Source: an uncultured delta proteobacterium
GTDB taxonomy: Bacteria; Desulfobacterota; Binatia; DP-6
Direction: 5' to 3'
Assembly (NCBI GenBank): GCA_963815115.1
Contig: CAWFFN010000008.1
Location: 576,001-640,000, forward strand
Length of the DNA stretch: 64,000 bases
Shown one piece after another: positions 1,557-56,188 of this stretch. Each line of letters begins with the position of its first letter. Position 1 is the stretch's first letter. The notes under the pieces were generated by a model that was not told the DNA's origin, ran no database searches, and was given only the letters and a program-made list of their open reading frames with translations. The position numbers were made by a program, and so were the translations under genes.

Positions 1557-1557
1557 C

Positions 1558-4893: not shown

Positions 4894-6546
<1,653 letters not shown>

Positions 6547-6554
<8 letters not shown>

Positions 6555-7209: not shown

Positions 7210-7216
7210 GGATCGC

Positions 7217-7507: not shown

Positions 7508-7576
7508 GCGCCCGCGCACGTGCCTTGCCGGCTCTTTGCGCTTGCCCCCGGGCGCGGCCGGTGGGTATAGCCGAGG

Positions 7577-11753: not shown

Positions 11754-11768
11754 CCGCCACGCCCGCCG

Positions 11769-14222
11769 CTAGCGGCTGCCGAACGCCGTCATCGCCGCGA
11801 TGAAGAGATAGGCGTGCTCCCAGACGTGGGGCACGTCGTTCTCGGCGACGTAGTCGGGCGCGATGCCGTCGCCGTTCACGTCGAGCTGGTAGCGGCCGTA
11901 CTGCTCGCCCATGTGCAGCGTGCCCGGCGTGGTGAGCTCGCGCACGAAGAAGCGTACCTGGTCGCGCAGCTCCGCCAGCCCCGCGGCGTCGCCGGTGGCG
12001 CGGAAGCGCATGCCGCGCGCCACCAGGTTCTCGGCGTCATAGGCGCCGCTCGGCGCCGTACGGGTGAGGATCGGGTCGATCGAACGCTCGCGCAGCCACT
12101 GGGCGTGCGACAGGGCCAGCGGCTCGCCCGGGGCGAAGAGCTCGACCGGCCAGAGCAGCCAGCCCGGGCGATCGCCGCCCGCGCCGAGGTGCGCCGGCGG
12201 CCCGGGATCCAGGAAACGGGCGCGCAGGGCGGCCTCGAGCTCGCCGGCGCGGCTCTGCCAGGCGGCCGCCTCGGCCGGGTCGAAGCCGCAGTCGCCCGCA
12301 GCGGCGGTCGCGTTCTTCAGCGCGAGGAGGACGGTCTCGGCACCCTGCAGCCCCTGGGTGAGCGGGATGTTGTCGTCCTCGTTCGCCAAGCACTGGAGCC
12401 CGGTCTGCGGATCGCGGCAGGCTGCCAGGTTGGCGGCGCCGAGCCGGATGGCGGGGCAGACGTCGGCGAGATAGGCCGTCCGCTGGGCCGGGTCGGTCAG
12501 GTGCCGCGCGTGCTCCCACATGGTCCACACGCCGAGCCCCGCCTCGTCGATCTCGAAGGAGATCGGGTTGCCCGCCACGGCCTCGTCGGGATCGGCGTAG
12601 TAGTTGGTCTCGTACGTGCCCGCGGGGACGCACGCCGGATAGCTCGGGTGAGCCGGAGCGCACGTTCCGAAGTCGTAGAGGAGCGACCACGGCCCGGGCT
12701 CCTTGCGCTGCACCCGGGCGTAGAACCGGTTGTGCCGGCTCACCAGGTCGGTGTAGCCGGCCAGGTCGAGGGCGTAGTTGATGAAGGATCCGTCGCGCGG
12801 CCAGTCGGAGCCGTAGGGATTCTGCGTGTCGACGCTCGCGACGATGGCACCGCTCGCGTCGTCCGTCGCGGTGCGCGCGACCACCAGGCTCCGCCGCGCG
12901 AAGGCGGTGATGAGCGGGTCGTCGGTGTCGGGCAGGTGCGCCGGTGCGAGGAAATCCGCCCACCAGCGCTCGGTCGCCTCGCGCTGCGCCACCGGCGACT
13001 CGGCACGGGCGCTGCGCAGCAGCTCGTACGCCTGGTCGCGCGTTCCGGCGATGGCGATGTCGAAGGTCACGGTGGCGACGCCTTTCCGGAAGCGCAGCCG
13101 GCGCGCGAGGGCCGCGTTCGCCTGGCAGGCCGCGATCGGCGACCGGCCGAGCGCACCGTCCCGGGCGTCGTCGTACGCGCTGCGGGCCTCGTAGCGCCAG
13201 CCCTCCCGGGTGCGGCAGGCGCCCACCGGCCCGCCCGGATCGAGGACGGTCGCGGAGCACACGAACAGCCCGCGCGCGAAGGGCAGGAAGTCGGGCGGCA
13301 GGTTGAAGCTCGTGATGGCGCGCTCCGCCAGCTCGCTCTGGTGCGCACACATCGGCGCGTCGTCGAAGCCCACCTGGTAGCCGTCATCGCGCCGGCGCGC
13401 CCCGAAGGCGATGTACACGCCGGCCTCCGAGAGGCCGTCGAGAACCTGGCGCACCGTCCTCCGGAGCTTGTGCGCTCCCCGGGGCGGGTCGCGCAGCACG
13501 GGATTCACCGGTCCGTAGTCGTGCGGATAGCTCTGCGCGCTCGCGGGCAGGAACTGGAGCACCGCGCGCTGGCGCGTGTCGTACGCGGCGGCGTAGTCGT
13601 TCTGGAAGTCGAGCCCCCAGTCGGCGATGGGAAAGAACGGCAGGCGGGCCAGGGTCGGCGCGAAGTTGGTGTAGAACACCATCGTGCCGCCGCGAACCGG
13701 CGAGCCGCGCTCCCGCCGCACCTCGTAGTGGCTCACGAGCACGTCGCGGTCGGGCAGGACGAAGTGGCGGGCGGTCACGTGCAGCCCGAGCGCACGGTTC
13801 GACGCCTCGTCGACGAGCACGTCCGAGGTGTCGGCGGAATAGCGCTGATCGTGGGTCCAGTCGTCGTCGCGCAGCCACGTGAAGCCGCGGCCCTTCGCGG
13901 TCCGGTAGGCGATCCCCGGAAACGCGCCCTGGCTGTCGAGGGCGCCGAAGTGCGGCAGCGTGCGCGCCTCCGGCGCGTTGGACGACAGATAGTCGAGCTG
14001 ACCGTAGAAGCTCGGACCAGGCCACTTGAGCACCGTCAGCTCGCCGCAGCCCGAGAAGGCCGCCGTCAGCCGGCCGCTGCCCAGCGCGGCGTTCACGTTG
14101 GTGGCGCCGAGCTGGAGCTCGAACGGGTTGGGTGCATCGTGGGCCACCGGGAGCTGCGGACAGGCGAAGCTTTCCGTGGCCCATGCGAGGACTGCGAGGC
14201 AGGCGAGACGACGCAGGGACAT
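11769..14222 (-). CDS. Secreted glycoside hydrolase family 15-like (glucoamylase/glucodextranase-type) protein
   Basis: Signal peptide; SGAIVAS, WPRDGSF (WxRD), EIDE and terminal PHVWEHA resembling GH15 (alpha/alpha)6 motifs. Confidence 0.75.
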   Translation of the reverse strand: MSLRRLACLAVLAWATESFACPQLPVAHDAPNPFELQLGATNVNAALGSGRLTAAFSGCGELTVLKWPGPSFYGQLDYLSSNAPEARTLPHFGALDSQGAFPGIAYRTAKGRGFTWLRDDDWTHDQRYSADTSDVLVDEASNRALGLHVTARHFVLPDRDVLVSHYEVRRERGSPVRGGTMVFYTNFAPTLARLPFFPIADWGLDFQNDYAAAYDTRQRAVLQFLPASAQSYPHDYGPVNPVLRDPPRGAHKLRRTVRQVLDGLSEAGVYIAFGARRRDDGYQVGFDDAPMCAHQSELAERAITSFNLPPDFLPFARGLFVCSATVLDPGGPVGACRTREGWRYEARSAYDDARDGALGRSPIAACQANAALARRLRFRKGVATVTFDIAIAGTRDQAYELLRSARAESPVAQREATERWWADFLAPAHLPDTDDPLITAFARRSLVVARTATDDASGAIVASVDTQNPYGSDWPRDGSFINYALDLAGYTDLVSRHNRFYARVQRKEPGPWSLLYDFGTCAPAHPSYPACVPAGTYETNYYADPDEAVAGNPISFEIDEAGLGVWTMWEHARHLTDPAQRTAYLADVCPAIRLGAANLAACRDPQTGLQCLANEDDNIPLTQGLQGAETVLLALKNATAAAGDCGFDPAEAAAWQSRAGELEAALRARFLDPGPPAHLGAGGDRPGWLLWPVELFAPGEPLALSHAQWLRERSIDPILTRTAPSGAYDAENLVARGMRFRATGDAAGLAELRDQVRFFVRELTTPGTLHMGEQYGRYQLDVNGDGIAPDYVAENDVPHVWEHAYLFIAAMTAFGSR

Positions 14223-27437: not shown

Positions 27438-27461
27438 CCTGCGTAGAGAAGAGACGACAAA

Positions 27462-27580
27462 CCCCATCCAGAGTGGCGGAGGGTCCGGCCCAGCGAAGCC
27501 ACAGCAACCGGCCCGTGCGGGGCGCGGTGCTAATTCCGACGCGAGGTTTGGCTGGTGAGAGCCGCCCGCGAAAGATGAGG
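27462..27580 (+). ncRNA. SAM-I (S-box) riboswitch aptamer
   Basis: CATCCAGAG..GGAGGG..GGCCC..GAAGCC.CAGCAACC..GGTGCTAATTCC..GAAAGATGAG consensus with pairable P1-P3; upstream of sulfur-metabolism genes. Confidence 0.92.
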
Positions 27581-27637
27581 ATCGCACGCTGGTGAGAGCC
27601 CTCCCCCTACCGTCGGTGGGGGAAGAGATCACCGAGC

Positions 27638-28384
27638 ATGCGCCCCAGCCGATCGACACGCCCTGACCTCGAGGATGCTCGCGTTCTGGTCGTCGGCGTC
27701 GGAGGACTGGGATCGCCGGCCGCGATGGCGCTCGCCGAGGCGGGCGTGGGTACCGTCGGCCTGGTCGACCCGGATCGGGTGGAGCCGTCGAATCTCCACC
27801 GCCAGCCGCTCTACACCGATGCCGACGTCGGGCTGCCCAAGGTGGACGCGGCCGCCGCCCGGCTCCGCGCCGGTCATCCGCGCCTCCGGGTCGAGACCGC
27901 GGCCGTGCGCTTCGGTGCCGGCTCGAGCTCCCTGCTCGCTGGCTTCGACGTCGTCCTCGACGGCACCGATTCCATCGGCGCCAAGTTCGACGTCAACGAC
28001 GCGGCGATTGCCGCGCGCGTTCCGCTCGTCCACGCCGGCGCCATCGGCTGGCAGGCGCAGCTGCTCACCGTCCTGCCGGGCCGCAGCGCCTGCTATCGCT
28101 GTCTCTTCGAGGAGCCCCCGCCAGCGGACGAGGTGCCGTCGTGTCAGGAGGCCGGCGTCCTCGGTCCCGCCGTGGTGTTCGCCGGCAGCGTGCAGGCCGC
28201 GGAGGCGATCCGCCTGCTCACGGGGGCGGCGCCGGCGTTCGCGGACCGGCTGCTCGCCATCGATACCCGCACCGGAAGCTGGCGGCGCATCGCGGTGACC
28301 CGCCGTCTCGACTGCCCCGCCTGTGGGACCGTGCATCAGGAGACCATCGCGCCCAGGAGCGCGCAAAGGAGTGTAGCGAGATGA
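27638..28384 (+). CDS. MoeB/ThiF E1-like adenylyltransferase (catalytic motifs intact, N-terminal RxxRQ helix absent)
   Basis: GVGGLG, SNLHRQ, PKV, DGTDS, CYRC, SCQEAGVLGP, CPAC. Confidence 0.92.
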   Translation: MRPSRSTRPDLEDARVLVVGVGGLGSPAAMALAEAGVGTVGLVDPDRVEPSNLHRQPLYTDADVGLPKVDAAAARLRAGHPRLRVETAAVRFGAGSSSLLAGFDVVLDGTDSIGAKFDVNDAAIAARVPLVHAGAIGWQAQLLTVLPGRSACYRCLFEEPPPADEVPSCQEAGVLGPAVVFAGSVQAAEAIRLLTGAAPAFADRLLAIDTRTGSWRRIAVTRRLDCPACGTVHQETIAPRSAQRSVAR

Positions 28385-29634
28385 GCCACGCAAAAGGGCT
28401 CAGATGCCGCGAGTGCGGCGCCGAAACCCCCATCGCCCCCCTGCACGTCTGCGAGACCTGCTTCGGCCCGCTCGAGGTGCAGTACGACTACGACGCGATC
28501 CGGCGCGTGCTCACGCGCGAAGCCATCGAGCGCCGGCCGCGCAACCTGTGGCGCTATCGCGAGCTGCTCCCGATCGAGGGCGAGCCGCAGATCGGGCTGC
28601 ACTCGGGCTTCACCCCGCTCGTCCGGGCCGAGCGCCTCGCCGCCGTGCTGGGCGTGAAGGAGCTCTGGGTCAAGGACGACTCGGTCAACCACCCCACCTT
28701 CTCGTACAAGGACCGGGTGGTCTCGGTCGCCATCTCGAAGGCCATCGAGTTCGGCTTCGACACGGTGTCCTGCGCCTCCACCGGCAATCTCGCCAACTCC
28801 GTCTCCGCGCACGCCGCGCGTGCGGGACTCAACTGCTTCATCTTCATCCCGGACGACCTCGAGCAGGGCAAGGTGATCGGCTCGACCATCTACGGCCCCC
28901 GCGCCATCGCGATCCGGGGCAACTACGACGACGTCAATCGGCTGTGCAGCGAGATCGCCGACAAGTACGGCTGGGCCTTCGTCAACATCAACGTGCGCCC
29001 GTACTACACGGAGGGCGCGAAGACCTACGGCTTCGAGGTCGCCGAGCAGCTCGGCTGGCGCCTGCCGCAGCACATCGTCGTGCCGGTCGCCGGGGGAACG
29101 ATCCTGCCCAAGGTGGCGAAGGCGTTCCGCGAGCTCCGCGACCTGGGCCTGGTCGACGGCGATTTCAAGATCTACGGCGCGCAGGCGGCGGGGTGCGCTC
29201 CGGTCGTCCAGGCGCTCCACAAGCACACCGACCTGATCAGTCCCGTCAAGCCGGCGACCATCGCCAAGTCGATCGCCATCGGCAACCCGGCCGACGGCTA
29301 CTACGTGCTGAAGGCGGTGCGCGAATCGGGAGGCTGGGGCGAGTCGGTCACCGACGCGGAGATCGTCGAGGCCATCCAGCTCCTGGCGCGGACCGAGGGC
29401 ATCTTCACGGAGCCGGCGGGCGGCACCACCGTGGCCGTCACCCGCAAGCTCATCGCGCAGGGCCGCATCCCGCGCGACGAGTCGATCGTGATCTGCGTGA
29501 CCGGCAACGGCTACAAGACGCTCGAGGCCGTGATCGACAGCGTCGAGCAGCCCTCGCGCATCCCGGCGCGGCTCGCCGATTTCGACGCCCTCTACGCCCA
29601 GCTCCGCGGCGGGCTCGAGGCGTCCGCGGGCTAG
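28381..29634 (+). CDS. thrC: Threonine synthase-like PLP enzyme (candidate MetM-type carrier-dependent homocysteine synthase)
   Basis: N-terminal CxxC..CxxC, PTFSYKDR (PLP Lys), ASTGN, EGAKT, TGNGYK; next to a MoaD-like carrier under a SAM riboswitch. Confidence 0.85.
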   Translation: MSHAKGLRCRECGAETPIAPLHVCETCFGPLEVQYDYDAIRRVLTREAIERRPRNLWRYRELLPIEGEPQIGLHSGFTPLVRAERLAAVLGVKELWVKDDSVNHPTFSYKDRVVSVAISKAIEFGFDTVSCASTGNLANSVSAHAARAGLNCFIFIPDDLEQGKVIGSTIYGPRAIAIRGNYDDVNRLCSEIADKYGWAFVNINVRPYYTEGAKTYGFEVAEQLGWRLPQHIVVPVAGGTILPKVAKAFRELRDLGLVDGDFKIYGAQAAGCAPVVQALHKHTDLISPVKPATIAKSIAIGNPADGYYVLKAVRESGGWGESVTDAEIVEAIQLLARTEGIFTEPAGGTTVAVTRKLIAQGRIPRDESIVICVTGNGYKTLEAVIDSVEQPSRIPARLADFDALYAQLRGGLEASAG

Positions 29635-29687
29635 CGCCGACGCCCCCCGCGCCGGTACAACCAGCAGTCGACAGGAGGAACGAACGC

Positions 29688-29963
29688 ATGACCCAGGTGA
29701 GAGTGCCCACGCCCCTGCGCAAGTTCACGGGCGGCTCCGAGGCCGTCGAGGCAGACGGCACGAACGTGACCTCGGTCCTTGCCGATCTCGATCGGCGCTA
29801 TCCCGGCATCCGGGAACGCATCTGCGACGAATCCGGCCAGGTGCGCCGCTTCGTCAACATCTTCGTCAACGGTGAGGACATCCGCTTCCTCCAGCACCTC
29901 GAGACCCCGGTGAAGGCAGGCGACGAGCTGTCGATCGTCCCGGCCATCGCGGGAGGCCGCTAG
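29688..29963 (+). CDS. Ubiquitin-like sulfur carrier protein (MoaD/CysO family) ending IAGG-R
   Basis: AGGAGG RBS; VRVPTPLR, RRFVNIFVNGEDIRFL and SIVPAIAGGR. Confidence 0.93.
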   Translation: MTQVRVPTPLRKFTGGSEAVEADGTNVTSVLADLDRRYPGIRERICDESGQVRRFVNIFVNGEDIRFLQHLETPVKAGDELSIVPAIAGGR

Positions 29964-29975
29964 AGCGGAGCGTGC

Positions 29976-30959
29976 ATGGCGTCGCGCGTCGCCCAGGCGG
30001 GTTGCTCCGCCGGTCCGACGGCGCCGGGGGAGGGACCGCTCGTCTCGCCCTCGGTGCTCGAGCTGATCGGCAACACGCCGCTGGTGGAGATCCAGCGGGT
30101 GCGCGAAGGAGTCCCGCCCGGCGTCCGCCTGTTCGGCAAGATCGAGGGCTTCAACCCTGGCGGCTCGGTGAAGGACCGGCCCGCGCTCAGGATGATCCAG
30201 GAAGGCATCCGCCAGGGCAGGCTCGTGCCGGGCAAGACCATCCTCGACTCGACGTCGGGCAACACCGGCATCGCGCTCGCCATGATCGGCGCCGCGCTCG
30301 GCTACCCGGTCGAGCTGGTGATGCCGGCCAACGTGAGCCGCGAGCGCAAGCAGATGGTGGCGGCGTTCGGCGCCCGGGTCGTGTTCAGCGATCCGCTCGA
30401 GGGCAGCGACGGCGCCATCCGCCTCTGCCGCGAGGTGCTCGCGGCCGATCCCGAGCGCTACTTCAAGCCCGACCAGTACAACAACGAAGCCAACCCGCTC
30501 GCCCACTACGAGACCACGGGACCGGAGATCTGGCGCCAGACCGACGGCCGGGTGACGCACTTCGTGGCCGGCATCGGCACGGGCGGCACGATCATGGGCA
30601 CGGGTCGCTTCCTGAAGGAGCAGAATCCGGCCGTCCAGGTGATCGCGGCGGAGCCGGAGGACGCGTTTCACGGCCTCGAGGGGCTCAAGCACATGGAGAC
30701 CTCGATCGTGCCGGGCATCTACCACGAAGCCGAGCTCGACCTGAAGCTCGGCGTCGGCACCGACGAGGCATACGACATGGTGTACCGCCTCGGGCGCGAG
30801 GAGGCGCTGCTCGTCGGCCAGTCGTGCGGCGCCGCCCACGTCGCCGCGTTGCGGGTGGCGCGCACGCTCGACGAGGGCACGATCGTCGTGCTCTTCGCCG
30901 ACTTCGGGGACCGCTACCTCTCGACCAACCTCTGGCTCGGCTGGCAGCGCCAGGGATGA
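29976..30959 (+). CDS. cysM: Cysteine synthase family PLP enzyme (CysM-like)
   Basis: IGNTPLV, NPGGSVKDR, TSGNTG, GIGTGGT, DRYLST. Confidence 0.9.
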   Translation: MASRVAQAGCSAGPTAPGEGPLVSPSVLELIGNTPLVEIQRVREGVPPGVRLFGKIEGFNPGGSVKDRPALRMIQEGIRQGRLVPGKTILDSTSGNTGIALAMIGAALGYPVELVMPANVSRERKQMVAAFGARVVFSDPLEGSDGAIRLCREVLAADPERYFKPDQYNNEANPLAHYETTGPEIWRQTDGRVTHFVAGIGTGGTIMGTGRFLKEQNPAVQVIAAEPEDAFHGLEGLKHMETSIVPGIYHEAELDLKLGVGTDEAYDMVYRLGREEALLVGQSCGAAHVAALRVARTLDEGTIVVLFADFGDRYLSTNLWLGWQRQG

Positions 30960-31240
30960 GCCGCGGCGGCAGCACATCGTCGCGCCGCAAGGCGGGCACC
31001 AAGGCGCGGGTGAAGCTCTACCTCACCTACCCGAGCCGTCTGGTGCGCGAGCCCCTCATCTACCACCTGAGCCGCAACTTCGACCTGATCTTCAACATCC
31101 GGCAGGCGAGCGTGAACGAGGACATCGGCATCATCGCCATCGAGCTCGACGGCGCCGACGAGGCGATCGAGCGCGGCATCGCATGGCTCCGCGAGCGCGG
31201 CGTCACCGTCGAGCCGATCGAGAAGAACGTCATCGAGTGA
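30956..31240 (+). CDS. Stand-alone NIL domain protein
   Basis: EPLIYHLSRNFDLIFNIRQASV..G..IEL.G..IERGIAWL...GV.VEPIE, the NIL/MetN-C2 pattern. Confidence 0.88.
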   Translation: MSRGGSTSSRRKAGTKARVKLYLTYPSRLVREPLIYHLSRNFDLIFNIRQASVNEDIGIIAIELDGADEAIERGIAWLRERGVTVEPIEKNVIE

Positions 31241-31800
31241 TGCTGAGCGACGCGGACATCGAGCGCTGGAGCCGCCAGATCATCCTCCCGGAGGTCGGCG
31301 GCCGAGGGCAGCGCAGGCTGATGACGGCACGCGTGTCGGTCGTGGGCGACGGGCCGGTCGCCGCCTGCGCGACCGATCTGCTCGCGCGCGCGGGGGTCAC
31401 CGCCGAGCGCTCCTCCGGGCAGCTCGACGACGCCGAGCTCGTGGTCGATCTCGGCCCGGGGAAGAGCGCCGGCACCGCCCTCGCCCGGCGCGCGCTCGAG
31501 CGCGGCGTGCCGCTGGTTCGCGGCCGATGCTGGAGCGCCGGCGGTACGGTGGACACGCTGGTCGGCCGGCCCTGCGGCCTCTGCCTGTCCGGGGCGGCGC
31601 TCCCGTCCGGCCCGACCGGCGAGGCCCTGGCGGCGCCGGCGGCACAGGCGGTGGCCGCGCTCGTCGCGACCGAGGTCCTGCGCGTGCTCCTGATCGGAGC
31701 GCCTGTCGGCCGGCGACAGCTGGTCGATCTCGACGGCGGCCGCTTCTCGTGCGAGGCGCTCGACTCGGCCGGCTGTGCCAGCTGCGGAGCGCGGGCGTGA
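31240..31800 (+). CDS. Degenerate ThiF/MoeB-like protein (inactive adenylation domain)
   Basis: ERWSRQIILPEVGGRGQRRL N-terminus and two CxxC motifs retained; nucleotide-binding Gly loop degenerate (GDGPVA); SNLxRQ segment and the conserved Cys absent. Confidence 0.8.
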   Translation: MLSDADIERWSRQIILPEVGGRGQRRLMTARVSVVGDGPVAACATDLLARAGVTAERSSGQLDDAELVVDLGPGKSAGTALARRALERGVPLVRGRCWSAGGTVDTLVGRPCGLCLSGAALPSGPTGEALAAPAAQAVAALVATEVLRVLLIGAPVGRRQLVDLDGGRFSCEALDSAGCASCGARA

Positions 31801-33002
31801 CCGGCGGCGAGCGGCTCGAGGCGAAGCTCGACATCGCGGCCCGTGGTGTGCGCATCGACGAAAGCGCGCGTGGGCTCGCCCCGGAATCGGAGCCGCTGCC
31901 GCAGGCCCTCGAGCTCGTCATCGACGACGAGGCGCACGTCAGCGCGCCGGTCGACGCGGCCGGCACGGCGCCCGCCGCCCTGCTGCTGATCGGAGACGCG
32001 GGCCGCTACTACCTGGTCGATCGGGAGGCGAACGGCGGTGCGCGGCTCGAGGTGGGTGTGCCGACGTTGCCGCGCTTCTACGGCCGCCGCACCGCCTCGG
32101 GCATGCCGATGCGGCGGGTCGCGAGCGTCGTCGGGAGCCACCTGCTCGTCCATCCCTCCGGGGCGTGCGGCTTCAGCGTGCAGGGCTCGCCGTGCCGCTT
32201 CTGTCTCGAAGGCGCACGGGCCGAGCGTGGCGCGGTGGCGACGGTCGCGGACGTGGTCGAGGTCACCCGCGTCGCCTTCGAGGAAGGCGTCGCCGAGTCC
32301 GTGTATCTGAACAGCGACGCCTTCGAGGCCGAAGACGGCGGCCTCGCCTTCGTGGCGCCGTACGTCGAGGGCATCCGGAGGCATTTCGACACGCTGGTGG
32401 CCGTGCAGGTACATCCCCCGCGCTCCGACCGCTGGATCGACTGGGCCTACGCGCTCGGCGTCGACGCCCTCAGCTTCAACCTCGAGATCTACGACCCCGA
32501 GCTGCTCGACCGCTGCTGCATCGGGCGCATGCGCTACATCGGCCGCCAGCGCTACCTCGATGCCCTGGCTCACGCGGCGCGCATCTTCCCCAGCGGCACG
32601 GTGTGGAGCGATCTGGTGCTCGGCCTCGAACCCCCCGGGTCGACCATGGAAGGCATCGACGCACTCGCCGCGCTCGGCGTCGTGCCCGTGGTGACGGCAC
32701 GCCGGGCCCTGTCGACGCCCGGGGAGCGTCTGGAAGGGCCCGTCGTGGGGCACGTGCTCGCCCATCTCTACGGTGCGGTGCACGACCGCGGCATCAACAT
32801 GGGCTGGATCCGCGACCTGGTCGGCGGCGTCGCGCCGCTCGAGGCGCGCGCGCACGGCGGCAAGGGCGCCGGACTCGCCACCGCCATGGAGAACATCACG
32901 CGCTCGCGGCTGGGGGCGCTCGCCGCCCGCGGGCTCGCCCGCTTCCGCCGCCGGCTCCGCGTGAAGAGCATCGGCGACTCGTTCGACGCCGCACACCTCT
33001 GA
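31797..33002 (+). CDS. Radical SAM protein with CX8CX2C motif (distant MSMEG_0568-like/BioB-like)
   Basis: PRFYGRRT.SG.P, CGFSVQGSPCRFC, SFNLEIYD, SDLVLGLE. Confidence 0.8.
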   Translation: MTGGERLEAKLDIAARGVRIDESARGLAPESEPLPQALELVIDDEAHVSAPVDAAGTAPAALLLIGDAGRYYLVDREANGGARLEVGVPTLPRFYGRRTASGMPMRRVASVVGSHLLVHPSGACGFSVQGSPCRFCLEGARAERGAVATVADVVEVTRVAFEEGVAESVYLNSDAFEAEDGGLAFVAPYVEGIRRHFDTLVAVQVHPPRSDRWIDWAYALGVDALSFNLEIYDPELLDRCCIGRMRYIGRQRYLDALAHAARIFPSGTVWSDLVLGLEPPGSTMEGIDALAALGVVPVVTARRALSTPGERLEGPVVGHVLAHLYGAVHDRGINMGWIRDLVGGVAPLEARAHGGKGAGLATAMENITRSRLGALAARGLARFRRRLRVKSIGDSFDAAHL

Positions 33003-33006
33003 GCCC

Positions 33007-34485
33007 GTGGGGGAGCCAGCTACCCGCCGCGTCCCCGGGGACGTCCTCGTCGACACGCGCCCGTTGTGGCGCATTCTCGCCGGACGCACCTTCCGCCCGC
33101 TGGTGCTGCTCACCGGCGCGGCGCTGTTCCTGCTGATCCGCGCCCTGCCGCCTTTGCCGGGACTCGAGCCGGGCGGGCAACGCGCGCTCGCCGTCTTCGT
33201 CATCTGCCTCGTCTACTGGGTGACGAACGTTCTGCCGCTCATGGTGACGAGCCTCCTCGCCATGGTGCTGCTGCCGCTCACCGGCGTGCTCCAGACGAAG
33301 GACACCTACGCGCTGTTCGGCAACGAGGCGGTATTCTTCATCCTGGGCGCGTTCCTGCTCGCCGCCTCCCTCATGCGCTGCGGGCTCTCCACCCGCATCG
33401 CGGTCGCCATCCTGCGTCGCTTCGGCCACACCCCGCGGACGCTCCTCCTGTCCTTCTTCCTCATGAACGCCTTCCTCGCCTTCTTCATGTCCGAGCACGC
33501 GGTCGCGGCCATGACCTTCCCGATCACGCTCGAGATCGCGTCCGTCCTCGGCTTGCAGCGCCAGCGCAGCAGCTACGGCCGTGCCCTCTTCATCTCGATG
33601 GCGTGGGGAACGCAGATCGGCGGCATCGCCACGCTGCTGGGCGGCGGACGGGCGCCGCTCGCCATCGGCATGCTGCGCGAGTCCACGGGGCAGGGCTACA
33701 CCTTTCTCCAGTGGACGCTGGCGGCGTGGCCGATCGTCGCGGTGCTGCTGGTCGCCGGCTGGTTCATCATCACGTGGTTCTTTCCCATCGACATCGAGTC
33801 GGTGAGACGGGCGGACGCGGTGATCGAGGAGAAGGCGCTCAAGATGGGCCGCCCGTCGGTGCGCGAGCGCTCCATCGGGCTGATCATGCTCGTCACGCTC
33901 ACTGCCTGGATCGTGGGTGGCGAGGAGTTCGGGCTGGCGACCATCGCGCTGGGCGCGGTCGTGGTCATCTTCGTCGCCGGGCTGCTCGAGTGGCGCGACC
34001 TCGAGCAGTACGTGAACTGGGGCGTGCTCCTCATGTACGGCGGCGCCATCGCGCTGGGCTCGGCGCTGCACAAGTCGGGTGCCTCGGTGTGGATCGCCTC
34101 CCTCACCGTGAGCCACTGGGCGCGGACGCCCGCGCAGGTCGTGGCCATCCTCTCGGGCATCGGCATCGTGCTCACGGAGGCCATGAGCCACTCGGCCGTG
34201 GTCGCTCTCCTGATGCCCGTCGCGCTCGGCATCGCGCAGCAGTACGGCATGGACCCGCGGCTGATGGCGCCCGTGATCGCCCTCCCCTCCGGGCTCGCCT
34301 TCACGCTCCCCGTCGGCACGCCGGGGAACGCCATCGCCTACTCCTCGGGCTACCTCCGGCTGCGCGACATGCTGCTGCCGGGCTCCCTGATGGTCGTCAT
34401 TGCCTGGGCCGTGTTCAACCTGGTGGTGCGCTACTACTGGCCCCTGATCGGGCTCTCGCTCGCCCCGGTGGCTGCAGCAGGTTGA
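33007..34485 (+). CDS. DASS/SLC13 anion permease (likely sulfate/thiosulfate uptake)
   Basis: Many TMs; [44 protein letters not shown]; upstream of sat. Confidence 0.88.
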
Positions 34486-34550
34486 GCCCAGGGCCGCTTT
34501 CCCCTAGGTTTCTCCGTTCTCACTTCCTCGACGCGAAAGGACCATCCGAC

Positions 34551-35807
34551 ATGCCCGATCTGATTCCTCCGCACGGCGGCCTCACCGAGCCCGTGAACTG
34601 CATGGTATCCGCAGCCGACGAGGCAGCGCTCGTCGCCGAGGCGGCGAAGCTGGTGCAGGTGCCCGTCTCCGACGCCGATCTCTCCAGCGTCTATCGCTTC
34701 GGCGATGGCGGCCTCTCGCCCCTCACCGGCCCGATGGACGAGGCCGCATACCACCGCGTCCTCGACGAGGCGGTCATCGAGCACCAGGGTCGGAAGTACG
34801 CCTGGACCATTCCGATCGCGTTTCCCGTCACGCGCGAGCTCGCGGGCCGCATCCGCCGCGGCGATTCGGTGGCGCTGGTGAACGGCGACACCGTCGTCGC
34901 CACGCTCGCGGTCGGCGACGTCTTCGCGTGGGACAAGCAGCGCTACATCCGGAGCGTCTACCAGACGGAGCGCACCGACCACCCCGGCGGCGACATGGTG
35001 CTCAAGGGCGACGCCGACAAGACGCACCTGCTCGGCGGCACGCTGCGGGTGCGCCCGCAGCCGAAGCACCCGAAGTTCGGCGCCTACGTCCGCTCGCCGC
35101 GCGAGGTGCGGGCCCTGCTGCGCGACAAGGGCTGGCAGCGCGTGGTCGCGTTCCAGACCCGCAACCCGTTGCACCGCGCCCACGAGTACGCCCTCGTCTA
35201 CGGCCTCGAGACGCTGCTGCGCCAGGGACACGACGCGGGCGCCTGCCTGAATCCGCTGATCGGCGAGACCAAGGGCGACGACGTCCACGCCGAGGTCCGC
35301 ATGGCCACCTACGAGGCGCTGATCCGCACGCGTGCCCTGGGCGACGGCGACAGCGACCAGGCGCTGTGGGGTCCGCGCGGGGAGTCCGTGCCCGATCGCG
35401 TGATCCTGCTCGGGCTCGACATCAAGATGTTCTACGGCGGTCCGAACGAGGCGGTGATGCACGCCATCTACCGGCAGAACTTCGGCTTCACGGACCTGAT
35501 CGTGGGGCGCAAGCACGCCGACGCCCCCTTTCACGACGGCAGCGCCATCTGGGGCGACTTCGACGCCCAGGAGCGGTTCTCGACGCTGCGAGGCGACCTC
35601 GAGATCCGCCCGCTGAAGGTCGGCTTCGCCGCCTACTACGAGTCCATCGGCCGCGTCGACCTGACCGACAATCATCCCGACGAGAAGCCGGTGTCGATCT
35701 CCGGCAAGGACGTCCGCAAGGCGCTGCTCGAGGGCCGCGAGGTCGACCCGCGCATCATGCGCCCGTCCACCTCGCACATCCTGGCGGCCGCGATGCGGGA
35801 GGCGTGA
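34551..35807 (+). CDS. sat: Sulfate adenylyltransferase (Sat type)
   Basis: [38 protein letters not shown]. Confidence 0.93.
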
Positions 35808-35832
35808 GGCCGCGCCTGCAGCGCCGGGTCCG

Positions 35833-36045
35833 ATGAAGGTCGACGTGTCGTGTCGCCAGTGCGGCGCCACGACCCGGCTCGACCTCGGCAGCCCGGCTCC
35901 GGGCGAGTCCGTCGAGGACTATCTCCACCTGGTCCGCGAGCGCCTCGCCCACCGGCCGAGCTTCACCTGCTTCGGCGGCCATACCGAGCTGCGGCCGCCC
36001 GTGCCCGGCTTCTGGGAGGTGCGCTGGGAGACGCTCGGGGAATAG
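35833..36045 (+). CDS. Small CxxC-containing hypothetical protein
   Basis: 70 aa ORF with CRQC and CFGGH; closes the operon before a strong hairpin. Confidence 0.6.
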   Translation: MKVDVSCRQCGATTRLDLGSPAPGESVEDYLHLVRERLAHRPSFTCFGGHTELRPPVPGFWEVRWETLGE

Positions 36046-36082
36046 GAATGCGACCCGAGACTCCGTCTCGGGTCGCATTCCT
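36044..36082. terminator. Perfect 18-bp-stem hairpin between convergent genes, built on the REP-like core
   Basis: AGGAATGCGACCCGAGAC-TCC-GTCTCGGGTCGCATTCCT. Confidence 0.75.
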
Positions 36083-36378
36083 CAGCCGGCCCCGAAGGGG
36101 TGGACCTCGATCGACAGGCCGAACACCTGCACGAGCAGGAGGTAGAGCGCGAGCAGCGCGAGGAGCAGGCCGCCGAGCGCCGTCAGCGCCAGGCCCGACA
36201 GCAGGATGACCGCCAGGAGCCCGCCGATGGCGATCGCCGGAGCGGCGAACCCTGGGCGGTTGAAGGGGGCGACCGGCTGCAGCAGGGGGAACACGCCCTG
36301 GGCCCGCACCTCGTCCCAGAGCGCATCGGCAACGCCGCGCAGCTGGCGGCCGACGCCGTCGAGCCAGCCCGTCGTCAC
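36082..36378 (-). CDS. Small membrane protein
   Basis: 98 aa with hydrophobic C-terminal hairpin; GTG start overlaps upstream stop. Confidence 0.65.
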   Translation of the reverse strand: MTTGWLDGVGRQLRGVADALWDEVRAQGVFPLLQPVAPFNRPGFAAPAIAIGGLLAVILLSGLALTALGGLLLALLALYLLLVQVFGLSIEVHPFGAG

Positions 36379-36875
36379 GGCGAGGAGTGCGGAACGTTCT
36401 GGGGAGCGTTCTCGGCCCGCAGGAGGATGAGGATCGCTCCGTCACCGCTGCGGGCGTCCCGGCCGACGCCGAAGACCATGGTGCCACCGTTCAGCAAGCG
36501 CACGTTCGTGTCGACCAGGCGCTTGCGCCCCTCGAGGAGGCGAACCTGCATCATCACCCGTTGGTCGACCATGCCCTTCGGAAGCAGGATCAGGGAGCGG
36601 CCGTCGCCGACGTCGAAAGCCTCCGTGTTGCGCCACGCCACGCGACGTTGCTGCTCGGCCACGAGCTGGTAGGCGTGGTAGCCGGCGATGTGCCGCAACC
36701 GGGGTCGCAGCGATTCGAGCTGGGGATCGCACGGGCCACTCTCGACGGCGCGGACGGTGGTGACCTGGATATCGAGCGGCTGGGCGACGGCATCAGGGGG
36801 GACGACACACGGACCGATGATCAGCATCGCACCCGCCAGCCCGGCGAGCGCGGCGCCGAACCCCTCGCGTGTCAC
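36375..36875 (-). CDS. Hypothetical exported protein in the sigma/anti-sigma operon
   Basis: GTG overlapping the anti-sigma stop; signal-like N-terminus; beta-rich body (TNVRLLNGGTMVFG). Confidence 0.65.
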   Translation of the reverse strand: MTREGFGAALAGLAGAMLIIGPCVVPPDAVAQPLDIQVTTVRAVESGPCDPQLESLRPRLRHIAGYHAYQLVAEQQRRVAWRNTEAFDVGDGRSLILLPKGMVDQRVMMQVRLLEGRKRLVDTNVRLLNGGTMVFGVGRDARSGDGAILILLRAENAPQNVPHSSP

Positions 36876-37405
36876 GGGTTGCCGTCCTCTATCGTGTGGT
36901 TCACCCAGATGACGGTGGTGCCGCTCTTGGGCTCGCGGCGAACCGCGATGCCCTTGCCGCTGAGCCGATCGATCTCGGCGTGGTTGGCCGACTGCCACGC
37001 CCGGCTCCGGCTCGCGTAACGGTCGCCTGCCGCAGCCGGGGTCGGCTTCGGGGTCGACGGCGGCTGCGCCGAGGTGCCGAGCCAGAGCAGCACGCTCGCC
37101 GCGAGCGCCATCACGGCCCCCCACACGGGGAGCTGCCGCGGCAGGACGGCGATGCCGGCGCTGCGTGGCCGGCGGCTCGCGGGGAGCGTCGCGGCCACCG
37201 CGGGCCACACCCCGGAGAGGTCGAGCTGCCGCGCTTCGCCTTCGATGAGACGCGTCACGGCACCGCGGAGGCCCGTCAGCTCGCGGATCGTCCCGTCGCA
37301 CGCCGTGCAGGTGGCCGCGTGACGGGCAACGTCGAGCAGCTCGGGAGGTGACAGCTCCGTGTCCACGAAGCCATCGAGAAGCTGCTCGACATCCTGACAA
37401 TTCAT
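36872..37405 (-). CDS. Zinc-binding anti-sigma factor (zf-HC2) with TM
   Basis: MNC..V..LL..FVD.EL, HAATCTAC (HxxxCxxC), one TM. Confidence 0.88.
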   Translation of the reverse strand: MNCQDVEQLLDGFVDTELSPPELLDVARHAATCTACDGTIRELTGLRGAVTRLIEGEARQLDLSGVWPAVAATLPASRRPRSAGIAVLPRQLPVWGAVMALAASVLLWLGTSAQPPSTPKPTPAAAGDRYASRSRAWQSANHAEIDRLSGKGIAVRREPKSGTTVIWVNHTIEDGNP

Positions 37406-51309: not shown

Positions 51310-52725
51310 TCAGGGACCCGGAGCGAGGCCGCGGCGCCGCGGCTGCGCGCGCTCACGCTCGCGCGCGCGCACGAGGGGCTGCAGCTCCTCGAGCGCGGCG
51401 TCGACCTCCTCGCGTTGCGGGCTGCCCTCGGCGAGCAGCGGCTTGGCGCGATCGAAGAGGCTGTAGGCCTGCTCCAGGTCGCCGCGCAGCCTCGCGGCCA
51501 CCGCGAGCTGGTAGAACCCCTGCCCCTGATCGCCCTGCCGCCCGAGCGCCATCCCGAGCAGGCGGTGGGCCTCGTCGAGATTGCCGTCGAGGCGCGCGGC
51601 GCGCTGGTACTCGCCCAGCGCCTGGTCGGCCTTGCCCTCGTCCGCGAACGCCTTGCCCAGCTGCAGGTGCGCCCAGGCGTCGCTCGGATGCGCCGCCAGG
51701 TAGCGCTGCAGGATCGCCGCGCCCTGCTCGGGCTGCTTGAGCGCCACGTAGACGGCGCCCAGCGGGCGGTCGACCTGGTTACCGAATCCGAGGTCGCGGG
51801 CCCGCTCGAGCGCGGTCTTCGCGGCGTCGGGCTTGCCGATGGTCTGGTATACCCGGCCGAGCAGGAACTGGCGCTCGGCGTCGTCGGGCTTCTCCTCGGC
51901 GAGCTTGCGGTACTCTGCGACCACCACCTCGGGCGGCCCGTCGAGCGCGTTCGCCACCGCTCTCGCTTCCTGGAACGCGGGAGTCGCCCTGGGATGGCCG
52001 GCCGGCGTCTTCAGCCCGCGCGCCTTGATGATGCTCTCGGTGTGCGCCACCCGCTCCTCGGTGACCGGGTGCGACAGCATGTAGGCGGGCACGCCGGCGG
52101 GATTCACCCGCTGCTCGACCAGGAGCTGCTTGAAGAACGCGGGGAGCGCGTTGGGATCGTATCCCGCCTGCGAGGTCGTCGTGAGGCCGAGGTAGTCCGC
52201 TTCCTGCTCGAAGTCGCGCGAGTACTTGAGCTGCGCGGTCTGGGCCGCGGCGAGCGCGCCGGCGGCGAGCACCGGATTGATGGCGGCGAGGAACACGCCG
52301 AGCAGCGACGCGACGTTCCACGCCATCCCCTGCGTCTGCATGCGGACGACGTGGTGCGCGTGCGCGTGGCCGATCTCGTGGCCGAGGACGCCGGCGAGCT
52401 CGTCGTCGGTGCCGGCCCGCGCGAGCAGGCCGGTGAACACGAAGACGTACCCTCCCGGCACCGCGAAGGCGTTCAGGATGGGGCTCTCGACGACGTAGAA
52501 GTGATAGTCGAACGGCTGCGGGCCGAGCGCGCCGACCAGCCGGTTCCCCAGCGACTGCACGTACTCGTTGACGGCGGGATCTTCGGCCAGCGGCAGCTGC
52601 GAGCGCGCCTCGAGGAGGAAGTGCGCACCCATCTCGCGCTCGCCGCCCTCGCCGGTGGCGAGCACCCCCTCCGCGGCGAGCAGGACCGCGAGGAACGACG
52701 CCAGGAGCGGGCGGCGGCGTCTCAT
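51310..52725 (-). CDS. bepA: M48 metalloprotease with TPRs (BepA/YfgC-like)
   Basis: NAFAVPGG, HEIGH, YSRDFEQEAD, LSHP, C-terminal TPRs. Confidence 0.88.
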   Translation of the reverse strand: MRRRRPLLASFLAVLLAAEGVLATGEGGEREMGAHFLLEARSQLPLAEDPAVNEYVQSLGNRLVGALGPQPFDYHFYVVESPILNAFAVPGGYVFVFTGLLARAGTDDELAGVLGHEIGHAHAHHVVRMQTQGMAWNVASLLGVFLAAINPVLAAGALAAAQTAQLKYSRDFEQEADYLGLTTTSQAGYDPNALPAFFKQLLVEQRVNPAGVPAYMLSHPVTEERVAHTESIIKARGLKTPAGHPRATPAFQEARAVANALDGPPEVVVAEYRKLAEEKPDDAERQFLLGRVYQTIGKPDAAKTALERARDLGFGNQVDRPLGAVYVALKQPEQGAAILQRYLAAHPSDAWAHLQLGKAFADEGKADQALGEYQRAARLDGNLDEAHRLLGMALGRQGDQGQGFYQLAVAARLRGDLEQAYSLFDRAKPLLAEGSPQREEVDAALEELQPLVRARERERAQPRRRGLAPGP

Positions 52726-53696
52726 GGGCGCCGCCGCGCGACGTCACGCGCGAAGTACGTGATCACGATGTCCGCGCCGGCGCGCCGGATCGCGAGCAGG
52801 CTCTCGTCGACCACGCGCTCCTCGTCGATCCAACCGCGCGCGGCGGCCGCCTTGATCATCGAGTACTCTCCGCTGACGTGGTAGGCGGCGACGGGATGGC
52901 CGAAGCGCTCCTTCACCCGCCACACCAGGTCGAGGTAGGGAAGCGCGGGCTTGACCATCACGATGTCGGCCCCCTCCTCGATGTCGAGGGCCACCTCGCG
53001 CAGCGCCTCCTCCGCGTTGGCCGGGTCCATCTGGTAGCCGCGGCGATCGCCGAACTGCGGCGTCGACTCCGCCGCCTCGCGGAACGGCCCGTAGAGGGCC
53101 GACGCGAACTTGGCGGCGTACGACATGATCGGCACCTGCGTGAAGCTCGCCTCGTCGAGCACCCGCCGGACGGCACCGACCCGGCCATCCATCATGTCCG
53201 AGGGCGCGATCACGTCCGCGCCCGCCCTGGCATGAGCGAGCGCCTCCGCGGCCAGCACCGGAAGAGTCGCGTCGTTGTCGACCTCGCCATCGCGGATGAT
53301 GCCGCAGTGCCCGTGGTCGGTGTACTCGCACAGGCACACGTCGGTGATCAGCAGCAGCCCGGGCGCGGCGGCCCGGATGGCCTCGAGCGCGCGGGGGATG
53401 ATGCCCGAGGGATCGACTGCGCCGCTGCCGCGCGCGTCCTTGCGCTCGGGAATCCCGAAGAGCAGGACGGCGGGAACGCCGAGGTCGGCGAGCCGGCGGC
53501 CCTCCTCGGCGGCGCGGTCGGCAGAGAGCTGCGAGATGCCTGGCATGGCGTCGATGGGCTGCTCGACGCTTCTCCCCGGGACGACGAAGAGCGGCTGCAC
53601 GAGCTGCTCCAGGGTCACCCGCGTCTCGCGCACCAGGCGGCGGAGGGCGTCGCTGCGCCGCAGCCGCCGCGGACGGTAGGCGGGGTAGCGGCTCAT
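52722..53696 (-). CDS. hemB: Porphobilinogen synthase (Zn type)
   Basis: RPRRLR, DVCLCEYTDHGHCG, PSDMMDG, MVKPA. Confidence 0.97.
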   Translation of the reverse strand: MSRYPAYRPRRLRRSDALRRLVRETRVTLEQLVQPLFVVPGRSVEQPIDAMPGISQLSADRAAEEGRRLADLGVPAVLLFGIPERKDARGSGAVDPSGIIPRALEAIRAAAPGLLLITDVCLCEYTDHGHCGIIRDGEVDNDATLPVLAAEALAHARAGADVIAPSDMMDGRVGAVRRVLDEASFTQVPIMSYAAKFASALYGPFREAAESTPQFGDRRGYQMDPANAEEALREVALDIEEGADIVMVKPALPYLDLVWRVKERFGHPVAAYHVSGEYSMIKAAAARGWIDEERVVDESLLAIRRAGADIVITYFARDVARRRP

Positions 53697-56184: not shown

Positions 56185-56188
56185 GGCG

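Follow-up and report, generated by a model that had tools for sequence, protein, structure and literature searches.

A predicted methionine-regulated protein-thiocarboxylate operon in Binatia, with one carrier gene for MetM-like and CysM-like enzymes and a candidate heterodimeric E1

Why should a gene for a threonine-synthase-like enzyme lie behind an S-adenosylmethionine (SAM) riboswitch, between the genes for an activating enzyme (E1) and for a small ubiquitin-like sulfur carrier, and what would such an operon make? The question is raised by a 64,000-nucleotide stretch of DNA from an uncultured soil bacterium of the Binatia (assembly GCA_963815115.1, contig CAWFFN010000008.1, positions 576,001–640,000; the whole stretch is hereafter referred to as the window). 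An earlier reading of the letters and their translations, made with no database search (hereafter the sequence-only reading), had proposed that ten genes behind a SAM-I aptamer form a combined uptake, activation and carrier pathway to both homocysteine and cysteine. From sequence and synteny, I predict with moderate confidence that this is a methionine-regulated protein-thiocarboxylate operon of the Binatia, in which a MetM-like and a CysM-like enzyme would draw on one carrier, loaded by an E1 heterodimer. The proposal of a carrier shared between homocysteine and cysteine synthesis is thus supported in silico, by the clades of the enzymes, the synteny and the single carrier gene; that the enzymes use its thiocarboxylate is still a prediction.

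Operon layout and conserved core

The aptamer and the ten co-oriented genes, with the domains first attributed to them, were borne out by Rfam, by Pfam and NCBIfam scans of the ten proteins (g1 to g10), and by a check of the open reading frames (ORFs). The features are as follows.

27461–27581, plus strand: SAM-I riboswitch aptamer, RF00162 (74.3 bits against a gathering score of 44.4, E = 1.5e-15, full model 1–108)
27582–27637, plus strand: probable expression platform, a hairpin (CUCCCCC...GGGGGAAG), from the sequence and its minimum-free-energy fold
27638–28384, plus strand: g1, predicted active E1 subunit, ThiF/MoeB adenylyltransferase, 248 aa (Pfam ThiF 230.9 bits, profile positions 17–237 only)
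28381–29634, plus strand: g2, MetM-like enzyme dependent on pyridoxal phosphate (PLP), threonine-synthase fold, 417 aa (PALP 238.5 bits; NF006050 315.6 against a cut-off of 303; threonine synthase PRK08197)
29688–29963, plus strand: g3, ThiS/MoaD-type sulfur-carrier protein, 91 aa (ThiS 70 bits)
29976–30959, plus strand: g4, CysM-like cysteine synthase, 327 aa (PALP 236.5 bits; TIGR01136, cysKM, 353.6 against 344)
30956–31240, plus strand: g5, stand-alone NIL domain protein, 94 aa (NIL 60.6 bits)
31240–31800, plus strand: g6, probable degenerate E1 paralogue, 186 aa (ThiF match confined to the N-terminus, residues 11–53)
31797–33002, plus strand: g7, variant radical SAM protein, 401 aa (NF045502 142.1 bits against 125)
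33007–34485, plus strand: g8, DASS-family anion symporter, 492 aa (Na_sulph_symp 212.1 bits; TIGR00785 275.6 bits)
34551–35807, plus strand: g9, variant ATP sulfurylase (Sat), 418 aa (ATP-sulfurylase 196 bits, PUA_2 105.1 bits)
35833–36045, plus strand: g10, 70-aa Cys/His protein (no Pfam or NCBIfam match; GC content at third codon positions, GC3, 0.93)

The riboswitch is the sole Rfam family match in the whole window. The ten plus-strand ORFs behind it (27638–36045) are intact, with no internal stops and a GC3 of 0.86–0.96 in DNA of ∼71% GC. Successive genes are spaced by −4, 53, 12, −4, −1, −4, 4, 65 and 25 nt, with overlaps of 1–4 nt at four junctions (g1/g2, g4/g5, g5/g6 and g6/g7) and gaps of 4–65 nt at the others. 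Because the genes past g10 (36082–37400) lie on the opposite strand, g10 is the end of the co-oriented run.

The predicted hairpin in 27582–27637 masks a purine-rich, Shine-Dalgarno-like stretch ∼10 nt 5′ of the g1 ATG and is not followed by a T-run, and a pattern scan identified no terminator-like site in this segment. Since the hairpin covers the Shine-Dalgarno-like stretch and the T-run is missing, the riboswitch would likelier act at the level of translation. Across the window, the pattern scan returned no promoter-like site and one terminator-like site, located inside g8 and fewer than in shuffled sequence, a result that is uninformative at 71% GC.

Relatives were gathered in a one-genome-per-species scan with the ThrC-like protein; 567 stretches matched, 437 of them encode a relative, and the best 80 loci (L001–L080, 73–91% identity) were kept. 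All 80 are contigs of metagenome-assembled genomes (MAGs) titled Binatia, Binatota or 'deltaproteobacteria', or evidently mislabelled bins. The mislabelled bins with a Binatia-type operon (L012, L014, L025, L026, L029 and L037) bear titles such as 'uncultured Enterobacteriaceae' or 'Klebsiella pneumoniae' MAG. For the core order I considered the 63 loci with at least 800 nt before and at least 3200 nt after the ThrC-like gene. The order and strand E1, ThrC-like, carrier, CysM-like, NIL are retained in 53 of these, and the arrangement is therefore not a product of chance. Five of the exceptions lack CysM, namely L040 (CysM alone) and L053, L056, L058 and L069 (NIL match also absent); the others lack a NIL match (L042, L077 and L078) or a carrier match (L024), or are on an aberrant contig (L073). 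The carrier gene is present once in 75 of the 80 loci, is missing from five, and is never found twice. In three loci (L035, L041 and L043) the ThrC-like gene and the carrier are parted by an insertion of 2.5–4 kb, which in L035 (11290–13842) encodes an S8 subtilase/He_PIG protein on the opposite strand. The aptamer lies directly upstream of the E1 gene in 57 of the 80 loci by single-sequence nhmmer, and Rfam confirmed it in all seven nhmmer-positive loci tested (68–91 bits).

The genes beyond this core are less constant. The full set of radical SAM, DASS, Sat and small-protein genes occurs only in the closest relatives, and these four genes are accessory to the core; of the ten-gene pathway first proposed, the five-gene core is thus conserved, and g7–g10 are not a fixed part of it. 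Sulfate activation is nonetheless repeatedly linked to the core, through differing genes: 3′ of it are found the variant Sat (nine loci), a canonical Sat or CysC-Sat fusion (13 loci) or CysD-type ORFs (nine loci). In L040 the CysD is followed by CysNC, as confirmed by Pfam, and adenosine 5′-phosphosulfate (APS) kinase is also among the types found after the core in other loci. The joining of sulfate activation to the carrier genes, as in the sequence-only reading, therefore recurs in many relatives, with varying activation genes.

The MetM-like enzyme, the carrier and the CysM-like enzyme

The ThrC-like enzyme g2 opens with a CxxC...CxxC zinc ribbon. Solved ThrC structures align to residues 52–403 only (match starts 52–57, E-values of 1.8e-62 to 4e-51) and are without the zinc-ribbon segment. 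A tblastn search of PLSDB with g2 returned 104 records, the best from Nonomuraea at 52.9% identity and the next at 39.6%. The Nonomuraea homologue (L081) lies directly behind a SAM riboswitch (68.7 bits), and is followed by a 91-aa ThiS-like ORF ending in GG. Its record (Nonomuraea gerenzanensis NZ_LT559118.1, 'plasmid I') is chromosome-sized at 11.85 Mb, and carries a separate cysO-like–cysM locus in addition to this riboswitch–metM-like–metO-like locus. A SAM riboswitch is likewise reported upstream of metM in Streptomyces albulus (PMC12172450), and the GapMind 2026 preprint names MetO, Mec, MoeZ and MetM as the proteins of that pathway, and describes MetM as 'often misannotated' as threonine synthase.

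I then placed g2 in a maximum-likelihood tree, together with five further proteins from the Binatia, the Nonomuraea homologue, 54 full-length representatives, a Brevibacillus ThrC and three paralogues, 65 rows in all. The 54 representatives come from the best 150 of a search of 1.84 billion cluster representatives, with fragments and fusions left out; among the members of the ten cluster representatives examined, the single named organism is a Micromonosporaceae MAG. A clade of 35 rows, with a Shimodaira–Hasegawa-like approximate likelihood ratio (SH-aLRT) support of 100, unites the window protein with that of Nonomuraea. The Brevibacillus ThrC, which belongs to a hom-thrC-thrB operon, and the three paralogues from other contexts fall outside this clade. 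The sequence S[FY]KDRVV after the PLP lysine is found in 16 of the 25 motif-bearing rows inside the clade, and in none of the 26 outside. The three paralogues, from Haloarcula, Azospirillum and Chlorohelix (L083, L084 and L085), possess an N-terminal extension and are annotated as threonine synthase; their contexts have no carrier, and include amidohydrolases, ABC transporters and dehydrogenases.

The sequence-only reading had preferred methionine to threonine synthesis for this gene, and its placement agrees, g2 grouping with the riboswitch- and MetO-linked Nonomuraea protein and apart from the ThrC of a threonine operon. The carrier gene g3, with its GG-R end, follows g2 by 53 nt. Clade and synteny support, by proxy, the assignment of g2 as a MetM-type enzyme, for which use of the carrier is predicted.

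It may be argued that g2 is a genuine threonine synthase, perhaps bifunctional, and that the operon is a cysteine pathway of the CysO/CysM type with a thrC attached. Both the NF006050 and the TIGR00260 threonine synthase models of NCBIfam score above their cut-offs, the PLP lysine and CASTGN motif align with those of solved ThrC structures, and a cyanobacterial MetM homologue is reported to have threonine synthase and deaminase activity (PMC12172450). Yet the operon is controlled by SAM rather than threonine, g2 belongs to a clade separate from the ThrC of hom-thrC-thrB, and its zinc ribbon is absent from solved ThrCs. MetM is also reported to be often misannotated as threonine synthase (GapMind 2026 preprint). 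In addition, a g2-type enzyme and carrier are kept in the five loci that have no CysM, and a Pfam scan identified neither hom nor thrB among the window ORFs, so that a threonine-pathway context is not seen. I consider a threonine-synthase role for g2 to be improbable.

The carrier g3 ends in ...VPAIAGG-R. Its best relatives in the PDB are M. tuberculosis CysO (3dwg_C, E = 1.1e-21), followed by 4n6e_B ('ThiS/MoaD family protein'). It is 53.4% identical to the MetO-like protein of Nonomuraea and 46.6% to the CysO-like protein of the same organism; this second Nonomuraea carrier (L086) is encoded at another locus, immediately upstream of a CysM gene. The actinomycete therefore has two carriers where the Binatia have one. 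The single ubiquitin-like carrier of the earlier proposal holds, as CysO/MetO-like by sequence and with at most one gene per locus. The carriers have a conserved VPAIAGG sequence in common. Among the 73 that are complete, GG is the terminus in 29, and the other 44, including that of the window, continue for 1–21 unconserved residues; 13 of them, again including the window, end in GGR. A trimming peptidase is needed for carriers that extend past GG.

The position of the CysM-like enzyme g4, which starts 12 nt after the carrier gene, would suit a second user of the same carrier. An 18-row CysM tree groups the Binatia proteins (100/98) with the CysM of an Aliarcobacter plasmid, whose gene has those of an M67/JAMM peptidase, a MoaD-type protein and an E1 as neighbours. 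CysK and a clade of CysM linked to cysE or cysA (100/99) are separate from the Binatia proteins. The cysO-linked CysM of Nonomuraea has a long branch, and its placement with g4 is not resolved in this tree.

An alternative is that the carrier serves the MetM-like enzyme only, with g4 an ordinary O-acetylserine sulfhydrylase B using sulfide or thiosulfate, and the DASS permease supplying sulfate or thiosulfate. The closest solved structures point in this direction, as g4 matches the Salmonella/E. coli CysM (1.4e-72) ahead of the M. tuberculosis CysM (3e-62), as does the TIGR01138 cysM model, which at 377.2 bits comes near, although below, its cut-off of 394.2. In five loci, moreover, E1, MetM and carrier are found with no CysM, and the carrier does not need CysM. 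The 12-nt distance from the carrier gene argues for the opposite, as do the grouping of the Binatia proteins with JAMM/MoaD/E1-linked CysM and outside the cysE/cysA-linked clade, and the lack of a serine acetyltransferase gene in the window. An ordinary role for g4 is, on balance, unlikely. The CysM-like carrier enzyme of the sequence-only reading is thus upheld in its clustering with carrier-linked CysM, and qualified by the five loci that keep MetM and carrier and in which it is missing; use of the carrier is plausible for g4, if less secure than in the case of g2.

The E1 pair

The g1 protein possesses the hallmarks of ThiF and MoeB, namely the GxGxxG motif, the DxD..SNLxRQ segment, a lysine, an aspartate, four zinc cysteines and the crossover-loop cysteine. 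Invariant in the alignment are G20, G22, G25, D44, S51, N52, R55, Q56, K68, D108, C152, C155, C169 and C226. Pfam identifies the ThiF domain only, with no rhodanese domain. What g1 lacks is the N-terminal helix with the RYSRQ (RxxRQ) arginine finger: it opens at VLVVGVGGLG, with no counterpart of residues 1–25 of E. coli ThiF. There is no room for this helix, as the distance from the preceding in-frame stop to the g1 ATG is just 14 codons, and the riboswitch lies immediately before. In ThiF and MoeB this helix carries Arg11 and Arg14 respectively, arginine fingers reported to reach the ATP site of the neighbouring subunit (PMC13139853).

The short g6 protein shows the reverse pattern. It retains the N-terminal helix (IERWSRQ...GGRGQ), in which the region of R12 aligns with ThiF Arg11, together with CxxC pairs, but its GxGxxG motif is degenerate and the DxD..SNLxRQ segment is deleted in the window copy. 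Its descent from an E1 is clear from profile comparisons: hhalign matches g6 to the g1 family over nearly its whole length (probability 99.7%, E = 6e-27), and the g6 profile identifies ThiF as the best match in the PDB (3e-39), ahead of MoeB (3e-33) and SAE1 (2e-4). Across 52 sequences only R12, Q13, Q24 and G52 are invariant, and mean column identity is 23%, against 46% for g1. The sequence-only reading had listed this gene as E1-like. A role as another functional activating enzyme was rejected, as the ATP motifs are absent. By sequence, g6 is a degenerate paralogue of the E1, and probably an inactive partner that completes the N-truncated g1.

The distribution of the two genes is consistent with such a partnership. 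Among the 69 loci that pass the completeness filters, 52 have a truncated E1 and the short gene, and 14 have a full-length E1 and no short gene. A truncated E1 was scored without the short gene in only two, L005, where the short gene is actually present, and L073, where the rest of the operon is absent. The remaining locus (L045) has a full-length E1 and a second E1. Within the full-length clade, L044 was scored as truncated only because of a contig cut. In a quick tree of 42 rows that spans every form of the E1, the short genes come out as monophyletic (SH-aLRT 96), on long branches, and the full-length E1s nest among the truncated ones (SH-aLRT 94), which implies at least two changes for truncation on the starred branches.

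Two loci illustrate how the pair may have arisen. L045 possesses two full-length canonical E1 genes, at the g1 and g6 positions (7403–8173 and 11249–11890), and is likely an intermediate stage of the split. In L018, the GxGxxG motif of the second E1 copy is still near-intact. Sequence and co-occurrence lead me to infer a duplication of the E1 gene followed by reciprocal degeneration, which would yield an asymmetric heterodimer with one active site. Asymmetric E1s are known from the eukaryotic SAE1/SAE2, NAE1/UBA3 and yeast Tcd1/Tcd2, and from the bacterial BilD; in these, as proposed here, one unit is dead for ATP binding and has the N-terminal arginine, and the other has the active site. The inactive domain of the single BilD chain is reported to supply Arg9, and Tcd1 to supply Arg59 in Tcd1/Tcd2. 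The Binatia pair differs in being two small separate genes in a metabolic operon, with no catalytic cysteine domain, E2 or ubiquitin-fold domain, and in that g1 has physically lost the helix; the heterodimer here is deduced from the genes. BilD is the one exception among the known E1-like proteins of bacteria, the others being homodimers, according to a structural study of 2023 (PMC10557695), and no description of a bacterial heterodimeric E1 of the ThiF/MoeB type turned up in literature listings. I tentatively suggest, at somewhat less than even confidence, that the Binatia have a two-gene asymmetric E1, with a degenerate paralogue retained chiefly as donor of the lost helix. It would be an independent, prokaryotic re-invention of the eukaryotic design of one active and one inactive unit, and would load a single carrier for MetM-type and CysM-type synthases.

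Alternatively, g6 may have no partnership with g1, and be instead a duplicate in decay or an adaptor that serves the NIL protein or the radical SAM protein, leaving g1 as a homodimer with no arginine finger. Such a homodimer is conceivable, since the finger is reported to be non-essential in ThiF and MoeB, and E. coli TcdA to lack it (PMC13139853). The high variability of g6 would also be expected of a duplicate in decay, with the low column identity given above and zinc-site cysteines lost in some members, and the overlap of its stop with the start of the radical SAM gene would fit an adaptor. Decay, however, is hard to reconcile with a gene that is intact, has a GC3 of 0.92, is monophyletic and is found in 52 of the 69 filtered loci, and an adaptor for the radical SAM protein with its presence where a radical SAM gene is missing (L012 and L040, for example). 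What g6 conserves is also exactly the helix that g1 is missing, with R12 and Q13 invariant, and the loci with a full-length E1 do not have g6. I regard a non-partner role as unlikely, though of real weight.

Accessory genes, predicted pathway and related systems

The NIL protein g5 is the last gene of the conserved core. In the PDB it is related only to the C-terminal domains of MetN (3dhx is the best match, E = 0.0023). It is free of cysteine, and its extreme C-terminus, VEPIEKNVIE, is invariant across 66 sequences, which suggests a docking tail. The NIL domain of L-aspartate-semialdehyde sulfurtransferase (L-ASST) is reported to be methionine-binding and regulatory (PMC12068725), and the domain has been linked to homocysteine synthesis (PMC5764234). 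By analogy with its family, g5 is most likely a methionine-sensing feedback regulator. It shares with MetN, and with the NIL/ferredoxin subunit of L-ASST, the domain itself and this link to methionine transport or homocysteine synthesis, and differs from them as a stand-alone protein of 94 aa, with no ferredoxin or ATPase and with the VEPIEKNVIE tail. A persulfide relay through g5 or g6 was also considered and rejected, as g5 has no cysteine and g6 has no invariant one.

The accessory protein g7 is not a canonical radical SAM enzyme. Its motif is CX8CX2C instead of CX3CX2C, with C124, C133, C136 and C241 invariant in 65 sequences, and the Pfam Radical_SAM model (PF04055) gives 23.3 bits, below the cut-off of 29.5. 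The family is small: of 8000 candidates scored, 390 reach E ≤ 1e-5, and their names are 'hypothetical' or 'radical SAM'; for the homologue P0123, protein clusters are likewise named only 'radical SAM / hypothetical'. The family profile has no match at E ≤ 1 among PDB sequences, and lenient Pfam and NCBIfam scans of 65 members gave only Radical_SAM, NF045502 and TIGR04043. The gene is absent from 41 of the 61 scored loci that retain the core, and its presence requires at least seven changes (gain or loss) on the ThrC-like tree.

This protein is central to a further alternative, that the system makes a sulfur-containing cofactor or natural product instead of amino acids, with g7 as the key tailoring enzyme. 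A radical SAM protein with no assigned function leaves scope for this, and the second-best PDB relative of the carrier, 4n6e, is a 'ThiS/MoaD family protein'. This entry is reported to belong to a thiosugar pathway. Carrier thiocarboxylates are also reported to serve siderophore pathways (Iyer et al., 2006; PMC1779556). But the radical SAM gene is missing from most of the core-keeping loci (the 41 of 61 above), and the partners that are conserved are two amino-acid-forming PLP enzymes and a methionine-type NIL protein, under a SAM riboswitch. A natural-product role is highly improbable.

The remaining accessory genes point to sulfate. The DASS-family gene g8 is directly 3′ of g7 wherever tblastn finds both, and its product may be responsible for sulfate uptake, by analogy with its family. 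The ATP sulfurylase g9 passes the Pfam cut-offs but is below both NCBIfam Sat cut-offs; its best PDB match is 8a8d (2.7e-41). It keeps a QxRNPxHRAH-type motif, but the GRDHAG motif is replaced by GRKHAD with a five-residue insert. This variant was verified in five orthologues (L001, L002, L004, L010 and L072), against 13 other loci with FIVGRDHAGVG; in three more-distant g9 orthologues a pattern search, the only search made for it, did not match the variant loop. The small protein g10 is found only directly after the variant Sat, and its orthologues in L002, L003, L004, L006 and L010 conserve C7, C10, C46 and H50.

Several steps are not accounted for by these genes. With E. coli CysH, E. coli CysI and the Aliarcobacter M67 peptidase as jackhmmer seeds, I searched the ORFs of 40 aa or more from all six frames of the window and of the 80 loci. 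With these single distant seeds, of moderate sensitivity, no JAMM/Mec peptidase or sulfite reductase was identified in the window or within 10 kb in the 80 loci. At the same sensitivity, the CysH seed matched only nine CysD-type ORFs, and therefore no APS or 3′-phosphoadenosine 5′-phosphosulfate (PAPS) reductase; the nine CysH-like matches were rejected as reductases, being CysD, and of the two examined with Pfam, that of L040 is followed by CysN/C. A rhodanese is likewise missing within 10 kb, and none is fused to the E1. The absence of APS/PAPS and sulfite reductases from the operon, remarked on in the sequence-only reading, thus extends, at this sensitivity, to 10 kb around it. A Pfam scan of 46 further window ORFs identified no hom, thrB, metX/Y/B, cysE, cysH or sir. 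The sulfide-forming reduction, the sulfur donor for the thiocarboxylate and the hydrolase for GG-X and the adduct must therefore be encoded elsewhere, or be performed by something unrecognised.

Two flanking clusters of the window, an alternative complex III ActD gene with cytochrome c oxidase (448–7507) and hemB/hemC/hemA (52725–57343), are unrelated to the operon; the window also carries the Gram-negative markers BamD/YfiO and OEP. L021 has, some 9 kb upstream of its operon, group II intron domains (140–448; RF02001 132.8 bits, RF01998 55.3 bits).

The predicted pathway would operate as follows. At low SAM, the SAM-I riboswitch would permit translation of the operon. The E1 subunit g1, probably as a heterodimer with g6, would adenylate the C-terminal glycine of the carrier g3, and the catalytically dead g6 would supply in trans the arginine-finger helix that g1 has lost. 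The adenylate would then be turned into a thiocarboxylate by sulfide, or by a persulfide on C169, the conserved crossover-loop cysteine of g1, as the analogy with ThiF/ThiS and HcyF/HcyS suggests. From this, clade and synteny suggest that g2 would form homocysteine with O-phosphohomoserine, and that g4 would form cysteine from the same carrier with O-phospho- or O-acetylserine. The NIL protein g5 would sense methionine for feedback. Where present, the DASS permease may bring sulfate in and the variant Sat may activate it. The enzymes that reduce APS/PAPS to sulfide would have to be encoded elsewhere, as would the peptidase needed to trim GG-R and to set the amino-acid adduct free.

A number of observations count against this reading. 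To the CysM-less loci, the closeness of g4 to enterobacterial CysM and the dispensability of the arginine finger, all raised above, should be added the long and compositionally odd branch of the Aliarcobacter CysM with which g4 groups. The membership of g2 in a MetM clade is by way of a syntenic stand-in, the Nonomuraea protein, instead of the characterised S. albulus MetM. The full-length E1 state is found mainly in one clade of 19, plus L045, so its coincidence with the absence of g6 represents few independent events. The riboswitch is not universal: Rfam identified it in none of the seven nhmmer-negative loci tested, and it has therefore been lost in at least one large subclade. Finally, the empty peptidase and sulfite reductase searches, within their moderate sensitivity, leave the pathway incomplete near the operon.

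Three carrier systems provide points of comparison. In the MetM/MetO system of S. albulus, a threonine-synthase-like PLP enzyme and then a ThiS/MoaD carrier are reported behind a SAM riboswitch, as in the window. The window adds a rhodanese-less E1, a CysM-like enzyme and NIL, and has a single carrier between two PLP enzymes, unlike Nonomuraea, whose metO-like and cysO-like carriers are encoded by two genes at different loci. MoeZ and Mec, the helpers of MetO in the GapMind preprint, were of a type not found near the Binatia operon. The CysO/CysM/Mec/MoeZ system of M. tuberculosis shares the CysO-like carrier with a CysM-type enzyme directly after it; the window differs in having no JAMM gene within 10 kb, an E1 with no rhodanese domain, one residue past GG, and a SAM riboswitch in place of cysteine-type control.

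The third is that of Wolinella succinogenes (HcyS/HcyF/HcyD/MetY). Bacterial operons with a ThiS/MoaD carrier, E1, JAB peptidase and cysteine synthase were described in 2006 as type 4c, and those with sulfate-assimilation genes and O-acetylhomoserine sulfhydrylase in addition as type 4e, to which the Wolinella operon belongs (PMC1779556); its MetY is reported to use the carrier thiocarboxylate (PMC8191291). In both this operon and the window, genes for sulfate transport and ATP sulfurylase accompany those of a carrier and of an E1 with no rhodanese domain, for methionine synthesis, which in the window is a prediction. The window, in contrast, has a MetM-type enzyme instead of O-acetylhomoserine sulfhydrylase, and its cluster has no JAB peptidase, SirA, PAPS reductase or sulfite reductase. 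New in this operon are thus MetM in the place of MetY, MetM and CysM flanking one carrier, the SAM riboswitch, a core NIL protein, the split E1, and the absence of JAB and SirA. Literature listings contained no such arrangement, whether for a Binatia sulfur or methionine operon, for the combination of thiocarboxylate, ThrC and riboswitch, or for a link between NIL and a carrier.

The MetM/MetO route was described only in 2024, in Streptomyces (Hasebe et al., cited in PMC12172450 and the GapMind 2026 preprint). If the reading proposed here is true, this route would extend to an uncultured phylum that is widespread in soil and sediment, and would there be merged with CysO/CysM around one carrier, which would aid the calling of methionine and cysteine prototrophy in MAGs that carry a 'threonine synthase' annotation. 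The peptidase and the reductases are concrete gaps to fill, as are the roles of g7 with its CX8CX2C motif, of the variant Sat and of g10. A housekeeping sulfur route with its E1 divided over two genes would, likewise, be a tractable model for the origin of asymmetric E1s. The Binatia may offer a natural series for it, which begins with two intact copies (L045), continues with a second copy that is near-intact (L018) and ends at the degenerate helper of the window.

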